From positions 11,023 to 75,022 of the forward strand of contig JBAYMO010000001.1 of NCBI GenBank assembly GCA_041663485.1: a DNA stretch of 64,000 bases, written 5' to 3'. Positions 49,742 through 57,299 of this stretch are shown here, in pieces. Source of the stretch: Candidatus Buchananbacteria bacterium. GTDB taxonomy: Bacteria > Patescibacteriota > Patescibacteriia > Buchananbacterales > UBA6539. The notes under the pieces are model-generated. The model did not search any database. It was not told where the DNA came from and worked only from the letters and a program-made list of their open reading frames with translations. Position numbers and translations under genes: made by a program. Numbering within the stretch: the stretch's first letter is position 1; the number at the start of each line of letters is the position of its first letter.

Positions 49742-50623
49742 GTGGCAATTGGTGGGAATCTTGGTGGCAGCCATTTTTCCTGCGCGGGCGTAAACGATAG
49801 CGGGACGTTACTCACAAAAGTCGAGGAAACGCCAATCAATCCGAATCAGTCGCAAGAAGAAATTCTTGGCGCCATGGCCGAACTGGTTAACGGATTGAAG
49901 TGCGAACTTGTGCAAAAAGGTTTCAAGGTTGTCGGTTTCGGCACAGGCGCGCCAGGACCGGCCAACTTTGACACCGGCGTGATTGGCGAAACACCCAACA
50001 TGCCAACCATGCGCGGCTGCCGGTTAAATGACGAGCTTTCCAACCGAACCGAACTGCCGGTCAAAAGCAACAACGACGGCAATCTTACTGTTTTTGGCGA
50101 AAGCCGACACGGAGCAGCCCGGGGCTACAAGAACGTGTTCGGTAACACGCTCGGCACGGGTTTGGGCGGCGGACTGGTCATCAATGACGAAATCTATACC
50201 GGAGAAGACTTCTCGGCCACCGAACTCGCCAAAATGCCGACCAGTGTCGGAAGCCTCGACAACAGCACCATTGAGCAACTAGTTTCGACCGGTGGTATTA
50301 TGGCCCGTTACCATAGCCTTACCGGTCAGCAAGCCGACCCGAAAGAAATTGAAGCTCTGGCTAAGGGTGGCGACAAGAAAGCTCAAAACACTTACGACTG
50401 GTTTGGCAAATGGCTCGGTTTTGAACTGGCCTGGGTTCAGGGTCTGTTGGCGCCGGATATCATGGTAATCGGCGGCAAAATCGCCAAAGGCTGGGACTTG
50501 TTCGCGCCGGCAATGTTTGCCATGCTCCAGCTTCACACCTGGAAAAAGGATGTGCTTGTCGTGCCGGCCGCGCTCGGCGAAGCCGGTCCCATTATCGGCG
50601 GCGCCTCGCTCTTTTTGGGATAA
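49742..50623 (+). CDS. ROK-family sugar kinase (glucokinase-like) with a GTG start and elevated GC
   Basis: 293 aa; AIGGNLGGSHFSCA N-terminus and the GTGLGGGLVINDEIYTG ROK signature. About 55% GC against roughly 37% for the genome. Confidence 0.8.
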   Translation: MAIGGNLGGSHFSCAGVNDSGTLLTKVEETPINPNQSQEEILGAMAELVNGLKCELVQKGFKVVGFGTGAPGPANFDTGVIGETPNMPTMRGCRLNDELSNRTELPVKSNNDGNLTVFGESRHGAARGYKNVFGNTLGTGLGGGLVINDEIYTGEDFSATELAKMPTSVGSLDNSTIEQLVSTGGIMARYHSLTGQQADPKEIEALAKGGDKKAQNTYDWFGKWLGFELAWVQGLLAPDIMVIGGKIAKGWDLFAPAMFAMLQLHTWKKDVLVVPAALGEAGPIIGGASLFLG

Positions 50624-50661
50624 CACCCAATAAATTCGGAGGGGATTTGATTTTTGCTATG

Positions 50662-50693
50662 CAGTGGCGACTGATGTTTGCCACTGTTTTTTT
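50662..50693 (+). terminator. Intrinsic terminator of the ROK gene
   Basis: Stem cagtggc/gccactg followed by T7. Confidence 0.6.
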
Positions 50694-50697
50694 AAAT

Positions 50698-50750
50698 TTG
50701 TGATTAAGTTTATTTTCGTTTATAATAAAAGTAGACAAAAGTGGACAAAA
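50698..50750 (+). promoter_or_regulatory. Promoter (TTGTGA-17-TATAAT) with tandem 10-bp direct repeats GT(A/G)GACAAAA at the predicted transcription start site (TSS) (candidate operator)
   Basis: ttgtga at 50698-50703, tataat at 50721-50726, repeats at 50731-50740 and 50741-50750. Confidence 0.45.
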
Positions 50751-50766
50751 TATTTTTAAACAATTT

Positions 50767-51363
50767 ATGACAAAATTTTTAAAACCTAAAGACTTAGCCG
50801 AATATTTAGGCGTGAGCAAAAAAACCATTTTTCGCTACCTTGCCTCCGGCCAAATTAAGGCCATAAAAATCGGCCAATGGAAAATTGAGCCGCATGATTT
50901 TAATAAATTTTTGAAAAAAAATTTAATCACCAAGAATCGCCAGGCCGTCAAACTAATGCGCCCCCAGGCAAAAACCGCTTTTAATCTGCCGCTTTATCTT
51001 TCCCCGGTCGCCGCCGGCTTCCCCTCCCCGGCCGAAGATTTTATTGAAGACCGGCTTGATCTAAATTTATATTTAATCAAAAATCAACCGGCCACCTTTT
51101 TAGTCAAAGTCCAAGGCCATTCCATGATTGGTGCCGGTATCAATGAAGGTGATATCTTGGTAGTTGATAAATCACTGCCCAGCCAAGACGGAAAAATCGT
51201 GATCGCGGTTTTGGACGGCGAATTAACAGTTAAACGCCTGAAAAAAATAAAAAATCAACTATACTTAATGCCGGAAAACCCCGACTACCAACCAATTGAA
51301 ATTAAAAAAGAATCAGAGTTAATGATTTGGGGCGTGGTAGTTGGCGTAGTCAGAAAATTATAA
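50767..51363 (+). CDS. umuD: UmuD-like S24 self-cleaving peptidase fused to an N-terminal excisionase/MerR-type HTH (LexA-like architecture)
   Basis: The C-terminal 130 aa align nearly residue-for-residue with E. coli UmuD (GFPSPAEDFIEDRLDLN...GHSMIGAGINEGDILVVD...VLDGELTVKRL). The N-terminal 70 aa, LKPKDLAEYLGVSKKTIFRYLASGQIKAIKIG, is an Xis-family HTH. The AG cleavage site is VAAGFP. Confidence 0.8.
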   Translation: MTKFLKPKDLAEYLGVSKKTIFRYLASGQIKAIKIGQWKIEPHDFNKFLKKNLITKNRQAVKLMRPQAKTAFNLPLYLSPVAAGFPSPAEDFIEDRLDLNLYLIKNQPATFLVKVQGHSMIGAGINEGDILVVDKSLPSQDGKIVIAVLDGELTVKRLKKIKNQLYLMPENPDYQPIEIKKESELMIWGVVVGVVRKL

Positions 51364-51460
51364 TAGACCGATGCTAATTTACGAATGCATACGAATAATA
51401 CTAATTCAATAATATTCGCATCATTCGCATTTATTCGTATTCATTAGCATCGGTTAATAG
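51361..51460. mobile_element. MITE-like 88-bp element with 12-bp perfect terminal inverted repeats and a 6-bp target-site duplication (TAATAG), inserted between umuD and umuC
   Basis: accgatgctaat at 51367-51378 and attagcatcggt at 51443-51454; flanking TAATAG at 51361-51366 and 51455-51460. The interior is built from ACGAAT/ATTCGCAT-type subrepeats. Confidence 0.45.
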
Positions 51461-51471
51461 TATCGCGAAAT

Positions 51472-52731
51472 ATGTTTGCTCTGATTGATTGCAACAATTT
51501 TTATGCTTCCTGTGAAAGACTGTTTAATCCCAAGCTGGAAAATTTCCCGGTTGTGGTTTTATCTAACAACGACGGTTGTGTTATTGCCAGATCTGAAGAA
51601 GCCAAAAAACTTGGTATTGCCATGGGCCAGCCTTATTTTGAAATCAAAAAACTAGCCGAGCAAAAACTGGTACATGTCGCCTCTTCCAATTTTTCCCTTT
51701 ACGGTGATATTTCTCAAAGAGTGATGAATATCTTGCATTATTTTATTGACGAAATAGAAATTTATTCCATTGATGAGGCCTTTATTAATTTAGACCAAAT
51801 TAAAAAATCGGATTTAACTGCTTTCGGTTTAGATATCAGAAAGACTATCAAACAGTGGACCGGCATTCCCGTTTCCATCGGTTTGGGATCAACCAAAACT
51901 TTGGCCAAAGCCGCCAGTAAAGTGGCCAAAAAACAACCTCAATTTGGCGGAGTAGTAAATTTTATTAACAACCCAGCCATTGATTCTTGGCTTGACCAGA
52001 TTGCAGTTGACGATATTTGGGGCATTGGCCGGCAATATGGCAAACTTTTAAAAAGTTTAAATATCGCCACGGCCCTGGACTTTAAAAAGCTACCGCCCGA
52101 TTGGATTAAAAAAAATCTAACCAGCGCCGGCCTGACAACCTGGCAAGAAATTAACGGCCAAGCTTTGGTTGATTTTGAAAAAGAAAAAAGTCAAGCCAAA
52201 AGCATTATCAGTTCACGATCTTTTAAGCAGCCTATTAGAGAACTTGGTGCGTTAGAAAAACTCGTTGCCAGCTACACGGCTCGCGCGGCGGAAAAACTCC
52301 GAGCTGACCGGCTCAAGGCCAAAGAAATTTCAGTTTATATCCGCACTAATCGTTTTAACCGAGAAAACTTTTATTTTAATTCGACTAAAATTAAACTGAA
52401 CCCACCGACCGATTACTCCCCCGAATTAATCACCCAAGCGCAAATAGCTTTAAAAAAAATTTTTAAACCGGGTCTGCCTTATAAAAAAGCCGGCATTAGT
52501 CTGACGCAATTGGTGGATAAAAATTGTATTCAACCGAATTTATTTGAAAATAAAAACTTAGAAAATAAAAAAGAGCGCCTGATGCGCTGCTTGGATAAAC
52601 TTAATCAAAAATTCGGATCTAAAACCATTGGCTCGGCGGCGGAAAGTTTTTGCGGCGTCAGCTTTTTGGAACAAAGTTTTAAATCTCCCAGCTACACCAC
52701 CGACTGGCAAGAATTATTACTGGTTAAGTAA
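51472..52731 (+). CDS. umuC: Y-family translesion DNA polymerase (UmuC/Pol V-like)
   Basis: 419 aa; [16 protein letters not shown]-terminus typical of UmuC/DinB. Confidence 0.85.
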
Positions 52732-56159: not shown

Positions 56160-57299
56160 TCAGCCCCTGCCGACGTTTGCGCGTTGCTTTTTGCTGCGTT
56201 TGGCCACGACCGCCTGGCCCGGCTTGACTTCTTCCAAGGCTTGCTTGGCTATCGTCGTGTCGGGTTGTTCGATGGCCACTTCGTCGTGGTGAACGGCTTC
56301 CACTTCCTGCACCTCCGTGCCCTGGGGCAGTTCCTGCGCGGGAACGTGAATGGCTTCGGGTACGGCATTGGCCGATTTCAGCGCAGCGTGTAGGGCTTCG
56401 CCTAGCTGGCCAAAGCCGCTGCCGCTGATCGCGGGCGCAGGCGCCTGAACGACCGGCTTCGGTTTGGCCGCCTTGGTCGCGGCGAACCGCTGAAGCCCCT
56501 CCCAATCCGTCTTGGTCAGGAAGGTGTAGTTGACTGCGAATAAATCGCGACCAACCTTGACCGCGATGAACTGGCAGATCGTGCGCGGCTCACTGACCAG
56601 CATGTACTCCGCGTTGGCGGAAATATGCTGCCCCCGATGAAACCCCGTTGGCACCAGAATCGAGAAGCACCGGGCCTCCCGATCCATCGAGACAAACACG
56701 CACCCCGTGCGTTCCGTCTCGATCAGACAGTAATTTCCCTCCCCGGTCGGAAAGTTGACCATGGAACCCTGAAGGGCGAGGCTGATGTTCCCGTCAACGC
56801 GACATTGCGTCAGACCGACCACCAGAATTCCATTCTTCTGGCGATAGATTTGCACAGCCGCCGCCGCATTGATTGAATCCGTCAATGCCATCTGGTAACC
56901 GGCCTGGCTGGCCTCATGGATTTTGTTCAACTCGTCGGCCTTGGCCTCGGCCGTGGCCAACATTTCCTCGATTCCGACGACACCATTATCGACGGCCATT
57001 TTCAGGCCGTCGACAGCTTTGCGCGCGACCGACAATTCGGCCGGCACATTATCCATGGCCGACTGCCAGGCCTTGTAGACACTGAGGCTGGTGGGCCTCG
57101 TGTCAAATACGGCCAACCCACTGTCTTGGTGGGTCAGGCCACACAAGGCCTGCGCGTCGCCGAACTTGACAAGCTGCAAGTTGGCCGGGTCTGACGGGAC
57201 CAAGAGCACTCGCATGCCCAGCCAGCCTTCGCCAACTGAGACCAAGCCTGCGCCGAAGTCAACTTCGACTTCCGGCCCGCACGATGGATTTGCACTCAT
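56160..57299 (-). CDS. Hypothetical 379-aa protein encoded by a roughly 60% GC island, probably of foreign origin
   Basis: The only long ORF spanning the 56.1-57.3 kb GC-rich block; GGAGGAAACGAC-ATG SD. The C-terminal tail AKRSKKQRANVGRG is basic and Ala/Pro/Lys-rich. No recognisable domain. Confidence 0.6.
   Translation of the reverse strand: MSANPSCGPEVEVDFGAGLVSVGEGWLGMRVLLVPSDPANLQLVKFGDAQALCGLTHQDSGLAVFDTRPTSLSVYKAWQSAMDNVPAELSVARKAVDGLKMAVDNGVVGIEEMLATAEAKADELNKIHEASQAGYQMALTDSINAAAAVQIYRQKNGILVVGLTQCRVDGNISLALQGSMVNFPTGEGNYCLIETERTGCVFVSMDREARCFSILVPTGFHRGQHISANAEYMLVSEPRTICQFIAVKVGRDLFAVNYTFLTKTDWEGLQRFAATKAAKPKPVVQAPAPAISGSGFGQLGEALHAALKSANAVPEAIHVPAQELPQGTEVQEVEAVHHDEVAIEQPDTTIAKQALEEVKPGQAVVAKRSKKQRANVGRG

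Follow-up and report, generated by a model that had tools for sequence, protein, structure and literature searches.

We analysed a 64,000-nucleotide stretch of a Candidatus Buchananbacteria contig (JBAYMO010000001.1, assembly GCA_041663485.1; hereafter the window), in which a single gene joins an excisionase-type helix-turn-helix (HTH) domain to a UmuD domain, directly upstream of umuC. The fusion gene (50767-51363, + strand) is an uninterrupted open reading frame (ORF) of 198 aa. The co-oriented umuC (51472-52731, +) starts 108 nt after it and is a 419-aa ORF for a Y-family DNA polymerase, the catalytic subunit of DNA polymerase V (Pol V). The umuC product carries the Pfam domains IMS, IMS_C and DUF4113 and matches the UmuC model NF002955 with E 4e-115 and 385 bits, under that model's strict cutoff of 431. 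Together with a predicted promoter and operator, the two genes make up a cassette of about 2 kb. The fusion protein is 100% identical to NCBI MFA6321913.1, from a Candidatus Buchananbacteria metagenome-assembled genome (MAG) of the Patescibacteria, or Candidate Phyla Radiation (CPR). The public annotation of that entry is Pol V autoproteolytic subunit only, and the regulator half of the protein is absent from it.

The N-terminal part of the protein is an HTH_17 winged helix-turn-helix (wHTH) domain of excisionase/MerR-like type (residues 4-52; 50776..50922, +) with the recognition-helix signature VSKKTIFRYLASGQIKAIKIGQWKI. It matches Pfam HTH_17 (PF12728) with E 4.7e-12 and 46.4 bits (cutoff 27), and it scores 30.8 bits against the NCBIfam excisionase domain TIGR01764, over the cutoff of 28.8. 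A basic, poorly conserved linker of about 30 aa, whose columns vary in the alignments (residues 53-82; 50923..51012, +), leads to a UmuD-type Peptidase_S24 domain (PF00717, E 1.5e-34; residues 75-192, 50989..51342, +). The UmuD subfamily model NF007621 matches residues 82-195 with 163.8 bits against a cutoff of 110, phrog_811 (UmuD-like) matches with E 6e-48, and the best match in the PDB is E. coli UmuD (8gmt_B; E 4.8e-31, about 45% identity over the 126 C-terminal residues). Alignment to 8gmt_B and 1umu_A places the predicted autocleavage bond at Ala83-Gly84 (51013..51018, +), the equivalent of Cys24-Gly25 in E. coli UmuD and of Ala84-Gly85 in LexA. The catalytic Ser119 of the GHSM motif (51121-51123, +) and Lys156 of the TVKRL motif (51232-51234, +) align with Ser60 and Lys97 of E. 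coli UmuD. A83, G84, S119 and K156 are invariant across 18 homologues, and the predicted cleavage would leave a fragment of 115 aa, the size of UmuD'.

Two known classes of S24 repressor do not fit the protein. The LexA equivalog TIGR00498 scored 103.4, under its cutoff of 110.95, and covered residues 60-198 only, and the LexA_DNA_bind family (PF01726) had no match in the fusion protein; because this defining N-domain is absent, the protein is not a LexA. A phage CI/HTH_3-type N-domain was likewise not found (HTH_3 E 0.088, Phage_CI_repr E 0.056, both far under cutoffs). Taken together, these comparisons bear out what a preliminary description of the locus had read from the DNA, namely a UmuD C-terminus with its Ala-Gly site, GHSM serine and TVKRL lysine intact behind an Xis/MerR-type HTH in place of the LexA winged helix, including the alignment to the UmuD and LexA families that it had proposed as a check.

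To describe the fold of the N-domain we used an AlphaFold2 (AF2) model built from 67 homologues, which reached a mean predicted local distance difference test score (pLDDT) of 87.5. Its elements follow in the order beta strand, helix, helix, beta-hairpin wing and long helix (H7-14, H18-27, E33-35, E37-40, H42-64), and the model points to an Xis/MerR-like winged-helix fold. Foldseek matched it to Xis of mycobacteriophage Pukovnik (4j2n; target-normalised template modelling score, TMt, 0.77, root-mean-square deviation, rmsd, 2.1 A) and to the BldC-DNA complexes 6ama and 6amk (target-normalised 0.72-0.82, rmsd 1.5-2.1 A; for 6amk, TMt 0.82 and 1.5 A). Further top matches were RdfS and the GIsul2 excisionase, and 8dgl and 8c3t are among the structures listed. 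A full-length AF2 model from 9 sequences was poor (pLDDT 55, with low values in the linker) and was set aside. It has been previously reported that BldC binds tandem direct repeats as head-to-tail multimers (PMC5859096), a geometry that fits two contiguous 10-bp repeats. The earlier suggestion that an excisionase-type HTH suits direct repeats is thus supported by the model, which matches both Xis and BldC, two direct-repeat binders.

Such repeats are found at the promoter of the cassette. A sigma-70-type promoter is predicted at 50698..50726 (+), with TTGTGA (50698-50703) and TATAAT (50721-50726) 17 nt apart; with 10 of 12 matches it is the best promoter-like site of the region. The first predicted operator repeat, GTAGACAAAA (50731..50740, +), begins 4 nt past the -10 box and overlaps the predicted transcription start. 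The second, GTGGACAAAA (50741..50750, +), abuts the first in the same orientation, with a period of 10 bp. Both the promoter and the two contiguous direct repeats, picked out in the preliminary description, were confirmed in position and sequence. The only exact matches to GTRGACAAAA in the window are these two repeats, and the looser pattern [AG]GACA-N5-[AG]GACA occurs there once, at the umuD promoter. A scan of 185,579 species genomes for the exact 19-mer GTRGACAAAAGTRGACAAA returned 53 loci, none of them in the Patescibacteria, in a collection that does not include the source MAG. The only S24 gene near one of these matches (L019) has the repeat downstream, not upstream, and the scan carries no information on a regulon.

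The HTH_17 plus S24 architecture was found in nine protein clusters, 58-100% identical, among 5.8 billion proteins. Its members come from ENA, JGI, Logan and NCBI assemblies that are independent of one another, and all are continuous ORFs of 196-198 aa in which the length of the linker is conserved. The possibility that an assembly error or a frameshift joined a small HTH gene to umuD, suggested by nothing beyond the rarity of the architecture and, for the frameshift, flagged in the preliminary description, is refuted by this recurrence in independent samples, and we regard its probability as negligible. In an exhaustive HMMER search of 1.84 billion representatives, the full-length matches among the best 150 examined were the Buchananbacteria family and one unrelated protein, P0147, which carries a different HTH_17/MerR-like domain on its UmuD domain. 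The HTH_17-UmuD fusion is therefore real and recurrent but rare. Two members of the family, P0006 and P0007, have been called as 211-aa genes that start at the GTG of operator repeat 2 (L002 4001-4039; L062 116-154); these are almost certainly start-codon miscalls, the true start being an internal ATG that gives 198 aa. umuC is linked to the fusion gene in every homologous locus, although in L003/L004 a 2.7-kb insertion displaces it.

Eight loci offered enough upstream DNA for a comparison of promoters (the window, L001, L002, L003, L006, L060, L061 and L062). In all eight, TA.A.T is followed by 3-6 A/T-rich bases and then by GTGGACAAAA G(T/C)(G/A)GACA, and GT.GACAAAA is invariant. In an alignment of the eight promoters, invariance is almost confined to the -10 box and the two repeats, with the pattern GT.GACAAAAG..GACA; the -10 positions are invariant, whereas the -35 is not conserved. 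The pattern [AG]GACA-N5-[AG]GACA occurs once each in L001-L003 and L006, always on the gene strand. The distance from the repeats to the start codon varies from about 20 to about 440 nt through insertions that resemble miniature inverted-repeat transposable elements (MITEs), by which the leaders come to differ (85 to about 440 nt), and the upstream gene differs in L006 and L060. Because the repeats are kept despite these variable leaders and upstream genes, selection acts on the repeats themselves. Their absence from homologous loci had been named beforehand as an outcome that would count against an operator; they were instead kept directly 3' of the -10 box in 8/8.

The MITE-like insertions are short GC-rich hairpin repeats (TTGTCATTGCGAG...GCGACC...GAAGCAATCTC) seen in the leaders and umuD-umuC spacers of related Buchananbacteria (L003 3400-3800 and 4410-4560; L060 1640-1860; L001 3890-3960). 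Since these hairpins are inserted downstream of the conserved promoter, its transcripts would carry leaders of up to about 440 nt.

We also searched for proteins that carry the N-domain on its own. A single-sequence word-index search with the 66-aa N-terminus found one protein only; a profile search found the rest, at least 275 free-standing proteins of about 50 aa, many of them labelled Patescibacteria, Falkowbacteria, Uhrbacteria or Parcubacteria. Their recognition region is nearly the same as that of the fusion, VSKK(T/S)(I/V)(F/Y)RYIKSGKLKA.KIGQWRI, and one such sequence is indexed in 179 blocks of the assembly collection. The family is very conserved and widespread in the Patescibacteria, and PHROGs labels it 'excisionase and transcriptional regulator'. 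In three fetched contexts a single small gene separates the HTH_17 gene from a large serine recombinase downstream (L194 2501-5165; L197 2293-4560; L198 2501-4820). With this neighbour the ~50-aa gene is a mobile-element module, which suggests that the family is a recombination-directionality factor or a regulator of CPR integrative elements or prophages.

The same kind of repeat accompanies these free-standing genes. P0269, a free-standing homologue of 60 aa that came from the protein search alone, lies on a 954-bp contig with AAAGTGGACAAAAGTGGACAAAGGTGG about 470 nt upstream on the same strand. In L193-196 (P0282), ATGACAAAA GAGGACAAAA CTGGACATAG stands 78 nt upstream of the HTH_17 gene, and its TGGACA doubles as the -35 hexamer of TGGACA-16-TATAAT; in L197 (P0304), CTGGACAAAACTGGACA stands ahead of an operon of a 67-aa gene and the HTH gene. 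In both L193 and L197 the upstream GGACAAAA repeats overlap or adjoin promoter-like hexamers. Altogether, 10-bp-periodic GGACAAAA repeats lie upstream in three of four close contexts found by protein search, always on the gene strand, and an additional case, L110, was reached via the DNA motif and encodes a 50-aa homologue (E 1.9e-20) whose repeats overlap a TAGACA-17-TATAAT promoter. In shuffles of matching size, the chance of a tandem site per locus was 0.4-2.8% (0.004-0.03). The tandem repeat was absent from viral homologues of 36-41% identity with other recognition helices, and in two viral homologues that keep VSKKTIYRYIK, TAGACAAAAATAGACAAAAAAGGACAA adjoins the gene. No protein element other than the HTH_17 domain is shared by all these contexts, so the repeats can be read as its cognate site. 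Most likely, judging from these sequence associations, they are the domain's own operator and not a LexA box, and the site at the umuD promoter is an auto-operator. The idea, first raised on the strength of the umuD promoter, that the repeats form a direct-repeat operator for an Xis-type HTH thus gains from the same tandem motif upstream of the free-standing homologues.

A metagenome scan with the motif AAAGTRGACAAAAGYRGACA gave at least 120 loci. Nearly all the matches listed are unrelated, and we rejected AAAGTRGACAAAAGYRGACA as a widespread regulatory motif. The unrelated matches are minisatellites, 44-bp iteron-like arrays, coding KVDKSG/KVDKSR stretches and a marine element upstream of an integrase (sampled 12 times); among the listed matches a HTH_17 homologue is paired with the motif in L110 only, plus weakly in L168. 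The marine element (GC content about 0.5) has the 20-mer AAAGTGGACAAAAGTGGACA directly before the start codon of a ~395-aa protein, with TTGACT preceding (L091 1621-1640; also L076, L088, L097, L098, L108, L119, L120, L144, L150, L157 and L175). By motifs alone (ME(K/R)xPSFR...) that protein looks like a tyrosine recombinase, and no HTH_17 homologue was detected on these marine contigs. Arrays of 44-bp repeats, each containing AAAGTGGACAAAAGTGGACA, occur in L106 (2968-3163), L152, L164 and L172; they look like the iterons of a plasmid or phage origin.

Our favoured reading, held with moderate confidence, is that the locus is a self-contained damage-inducible Pol V cassette in which UmuD gained an Xis/BldC-type HTH_17 domain plus the cognate tandem-repeat operator. 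The domain would have come from the ~50-aa DNA-binding proteins of patescibacterial serine-recombinase mobile elements, and the operator, at least two head-to-tail 10-bp GGACAAAA repeats, would have arrived together with it. The intact protein, dimerised via its S24 domain as are UmuD and LexA, would seat two HTH_17 domains on the repeats at 50731-50750, and their occupancy at the transcription start, 3' of the -10 box, would repress umuD-umuC (autoregulation). Upon DNA damage, RecA filaments on single-stranded DNA would stimulate self-cleavage by Ser119/Lys156 at Ala83-Gly84. Cleavage would part the DNA-binding domain from the dimerisation domain, so that operator occupancy falls, and it would also free the 115-aa UmuD'-like fragment able to activate the co-transcribed UmuC. 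Repressor, damage sensor and polymerase subunit are thus probably one and the same protein. We infer these steps from the intact motifs and from the precedents of LexA, phage CI and UmuDAb, the UmuD-derived repressor of Acinetobacter. The preliminary description had proposed a self-cleaving autoregulatory repressor of umuDC; its architecture and the conservation of its operator are borne out by our results, while DNA binding, repression, RecA-dependent cleavage and Pol V function stay at the level of what the precedents make plausible.

Several points weigh against this reading. Its main weakness is that loss of binding after cleavage is not guaranteed, because the free-standing 50-aa relatives presumably bind DNA without an S24 dimerisation domain; if the 83-aa product of cleavage also stays on the DNA, as it might, derepression would depend on its degradation or on weaker cooperativity on only two repeats. 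It has also been reported that the UmuD function of UmuDAb is gone (PMC4807011), and a dual function is therefore not to be taken for granted here; in favour of a retained UmuD' role, the operon has no UmuD other than the fusion protein, which scores as a true UmuD. Neither recA nor a canonical lexA lies within the window. Among the repeat contexts, that of one close free-standing homologue (L198-201) holds no tandem site within the DNA available, and the truncated fusion locus L005, with 68 nt of upstream DNA only, has a single reversed half-site and no tandem site.

The alternative that survives best, which we nevertheless consider unlikely, is that the protein works purely as a repressor, LexA-like and of the kind seen in UmuDAb. 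It would bind the repeats and cleave itself, and its C-terminal fragment would no longer be a UmuD' subunit, leaving UmuC to act alone, to act with another partner or to lie idle. UmuDAb is the only characterised UmuD-derived repressor, and in its case E. coli umuD is not complemented and loss of the gene leaves the mutation rate unlowered (PMC4807011). Against this alternative, the fusion gene is the only S24 or umuD-like gene in the window and lies directly upstream of umuC in every locus, and its S24 domain scores above the UmuD cutoff, is about 45% identical to E. coli UmuD and would give a UmuD'-sized fragment.

Less probable still, and in our view improbable, is a role other than that of a repressor relieved by cleavage. 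HTH_17, bound to the repeats, would then serve as an activator or as an architectural factor in the manner of BldC or Xis, or the N-terminal fragment would stay bound, and damage would alter only the conversion of UmuD to UmuD' and not transcription. The free-standing 50-aa relatives do function without an S24 domain, and members of the BldC family act as activators or repressors and oligomerise through the wHTH alone (PMC5859096). The site, however, spans the predicted +1 directly 3' of the -10 box in 8/8 loci, a classic repressor position; its two repeats, and no more, suit a dimer held by S24; and LexA, CI and UmuDAb all lose repression on cleavage.

We give somewhat less credence again to the possibility that a canonical Patescibacteria LexA uses the repeats as its SOS box. 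The locus would then be an ordinary LexA-regulated umuDC, with the HTH_17 domain serving some other end, for instance tethering Pol V to DNA or a mobile-element function left over. Translesion polymerases are core SOS genes (PMC8565304), and direct-repeat LexA motifs are mentioned for Patescibacteria, Alphaproteobacteria/Acidobacteria, Verrucomicrobia and Balneolaeota by PMC7739468, which attributes them to its references 51-53. In our own comparison the reverse complement, TGTCC-N5-TGTCC, loosely resembles LexA half-sites of the TGTTC/GTTC type. What speaks against a LexA box is that the motif accompanies free-standing HTH_17 homologues in mobile-element contexts without SOS genes, with HTH_17 as the one protein element shared by all motif contexts. 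Furthermore, the window has no second site, and the lack of a Patescibacteria match to the exact 19-mer in the species genomes indicates that it is not a widespread patescibacterial SOS box.

Going beyond our favoured reading of a damage-inducible cassette, a single polypeptide may make up a whole minimal SOS circuit, acting as repressor of the operon that encodes it, as sensor responsive to activated RecA and, after cleavage, as UmuD' activator of the co-transcribed polymerase. It would have originated when reduced CPR genomes captured an Xis/BldC-type module from a mobile element, plus its tandem-repeat operator. We put this forward tentatively, as somewhat less than an even prospect. If it is true and the host has no LexA, the fusion could be the host's only damage-inducible transcription switch.

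The closest known analogue is UmuDAb of Acinetobacter baumannii and A. baylyi, and the likeness is one of functional analogy only. Both proteins place a UmuD-type S24 domain behind an N-terminal DNA-binding extension and are associated with error-prone polymerase genes. It has been previously reported that UmuDAb represses umuDC promoters and its own gene through its N-terminal domain and self-cleaves after DNA damage (PMC4807011, PMC11332147, PMC8565304). The N-domain of UmuDAb, however, is modelled as LexA-like (PMC4807011), whereas that of the fusion is HTH_17/Xis/BldC-type, and it acts on a large palindromic operator in which a 5-bp core is critical, whereas the operator of the fusion is predicted to be two contiguous 10-bp direct repeats and not a palindrome. 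UmuDAb needs the corepressor DdrR, while the fusion has no evident DdrR-like partner, although no DdrR sequence comparison was made. UmuDAb, in a gammaproteobacterium, has lost UmuD function and acts on several umuDC loci in trans; the fusion, in a CPR bacterium, is the sole UmuD of the operon to which it belongs, and cleavage of it probably still gives UmuD'.

Other systems share parts of this design. E. coli UmuD has in common with the fusion the glycine of the cleavage bond, the Ser-Lys dyad, an immediately downstream umuC and the UmuD'-sized fragment, but E. coli UmuD, with an N-terminal tail of only 24 aa, does not bind DNA and is repressed by LexA, whereas the fusion carries 83 residues, including a folded DNA-binding domain, ahead of the cleavage site. 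Compared with LexA (TIGR00498; PF01726 plus PF00717), the fusion is without LexA_DNA_bind, has an S24 domain of UmuD type and has an apparent regulon of a single operon. To BldC, phage Xis and RdfS the N-domain is alike in structure, and the target predicted for it is like theirs in being tandem direct repeats with a period of about 10 bp. None of the known examples of these three is fused to S24 or coupled to RecA-dependent cleavage, and the recognised sequences differ, AATT-N4-C for BldC and, by prediction, GGACAAAA for the fusion. Finally, among S24 repressors whose DNA-binding domain is not that of LexA, the non-canonical LexA of Bacteroidetes and HdiR of Streptococcaceae regulate translesion polymerases or a regulon that resembles SOS (PMC8565304), but their N-domains are of CI/HTH_3 type, their S24 domains of phage-repressor type and their sites palindromes, whereas the S24 domain of the fusion is of UmuD type.

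Literature searches found no description of HTH-UmuD fusions or of a Parcubacteria LexA. UmuD-derived self-cleaving repressors of error-prone polymerases are already known; what appears to be new here, as far as sequence comparison goes, is an independent origin, recognition of direct repeats and a likely dual function. The locus would be an independent case of UmuD turned repressor, a step for which Acinetobacter UmuDAb is the only known example, and it would have come about with another class of DNA-binding domain and another operator geometry. The lineage is an uncultivated one of the CPR, and the polymerase-accessory role has probably been kept. It also provides a testable pair of factor and operator (head-to-tail GGACAAAA repeats) for the large uncharacterised ~50-aa HTH_17 family on patescibacterial serine-recombinase elements. 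Being small and self-contained, the cassette would be convenient for studying cleavage-coupled derepression where the domain can bind direct repeats alone, and it is possibly a compact damage-inducible switch.

Judging from domain matches, grafting of a DNA-binding domain onto UmuD is recurrent, and the literature searches gave no account of the other fusions either. A Pfam scan of long UmuD-type proteins found RHH_1-UmuD (P0129) and HTH_3-UmuD (P0130), and the wider set (P0129, P0130, P0145, P0147, P0238) comprises RHH_1-UmuD, HTH_3-UmuD, pentapeptide-repeat-UmuD, the second HTH_17/MerR-UmuD and a terminase-large-subunit-S24 protein. If the reading of one polypeptide as a minimal SOS circuit is true, UmuD would, with these, be a general chassis for grafted DNA-binding domains that yields private, LexA-independent mutagenesis switches. 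Four proteins of 220-300 aa (P0121, P0010, P0122, P0125) are matched by the query profile over two segments that lie apart. Many UmuD homologues in other phyla, about 200 aa long and some labelled Pseudomonadota (P0016-P0019, P0028, P0038, P0058, P0076, P0091, P0123), have in common another conserved extension at the N-terminus, GG(A/K)R.GAGRP.G.G..GE.T...R.P, with no Pfam match; this extension may be another DNA-binding graft.

In the phage and plasmid collections only plain UmuD was found. A match of 96% coverage on Magnetospirillum plasmid pMSR-1 was rejected as an HTH fusion, as the N-terminal extension of the alignment ran into non-coding sequence. On this plasmid (M. gryphiswaldense, NC_009353.1 7375-7422; L202 2323-2370), the interval that separates a divergent large serine recombinase from a plain umuD-umuC operon contains a 10-bp unit, TTTGTCGAAG (reverse complement CTTCGACAAA), repeated in tandem 4.7 times. 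No HTH_17 gene is evident there, and these copies parallel the GACAAA-type 10-bp repeats of the fusion locus.

Upstream of the cassette lie PSP1, tsf, rpsB and a ROK-kinase gene (49742-50623), and downstream a MacB-type ABC transporter. The preliminary description had placed the cassette in an accessory stretch, and we reject this island idea: in three relatives the flanks on both sides are syntenic, with PSP1, tsf, rpsB, ROK, fusion gene and umuC in unchanged order, and the GC content of the cassette (0.35-0.41) is that of neighbouring sequence. The two most distant members of the family (58-59% identity) lie in other genomic contexts. The ROK-kinase gene itself is GC-rich (0.50-0.56). A terminator-like hairpin with a T-run (50661..50694, +; a 10-pair stem with 5 GC pairs) is predicted to close the ROK-kinase gene and to insulate the umuD promoter, and an equivalent hairpin stands ahead of the promoter in L001, L002, L003 and L062.

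The umuD-umuC spacer holds an imperfect 90-nt hairpin (51366..51455, +) with a folding free energy (dG) of -30.7 kcal/mol and a z-score of -3.74; 0/200 shuffles were equally stable. It has no T-run and is thus not a canonical terminator. A shorter related hairpin (CCGATGC...GCATCGG) occurs in the spacer of L001, and the spacers differ in the remaining loci. The hairpin may act in processing or in translational coupling, or it may be a small palindrome that has been inserted. Rfam has no family for the leader or for this hairpin, and across the whole window we found no tRNA gene and no Rfam family at gathering score. Elsewhere in the window, a 379-aa ORF (56160-57299, - strand) with no significant Pfam family has a GC content of about 0.57-0.59, compared with about 0.40 for the genome, and may be a recent foreign gene.

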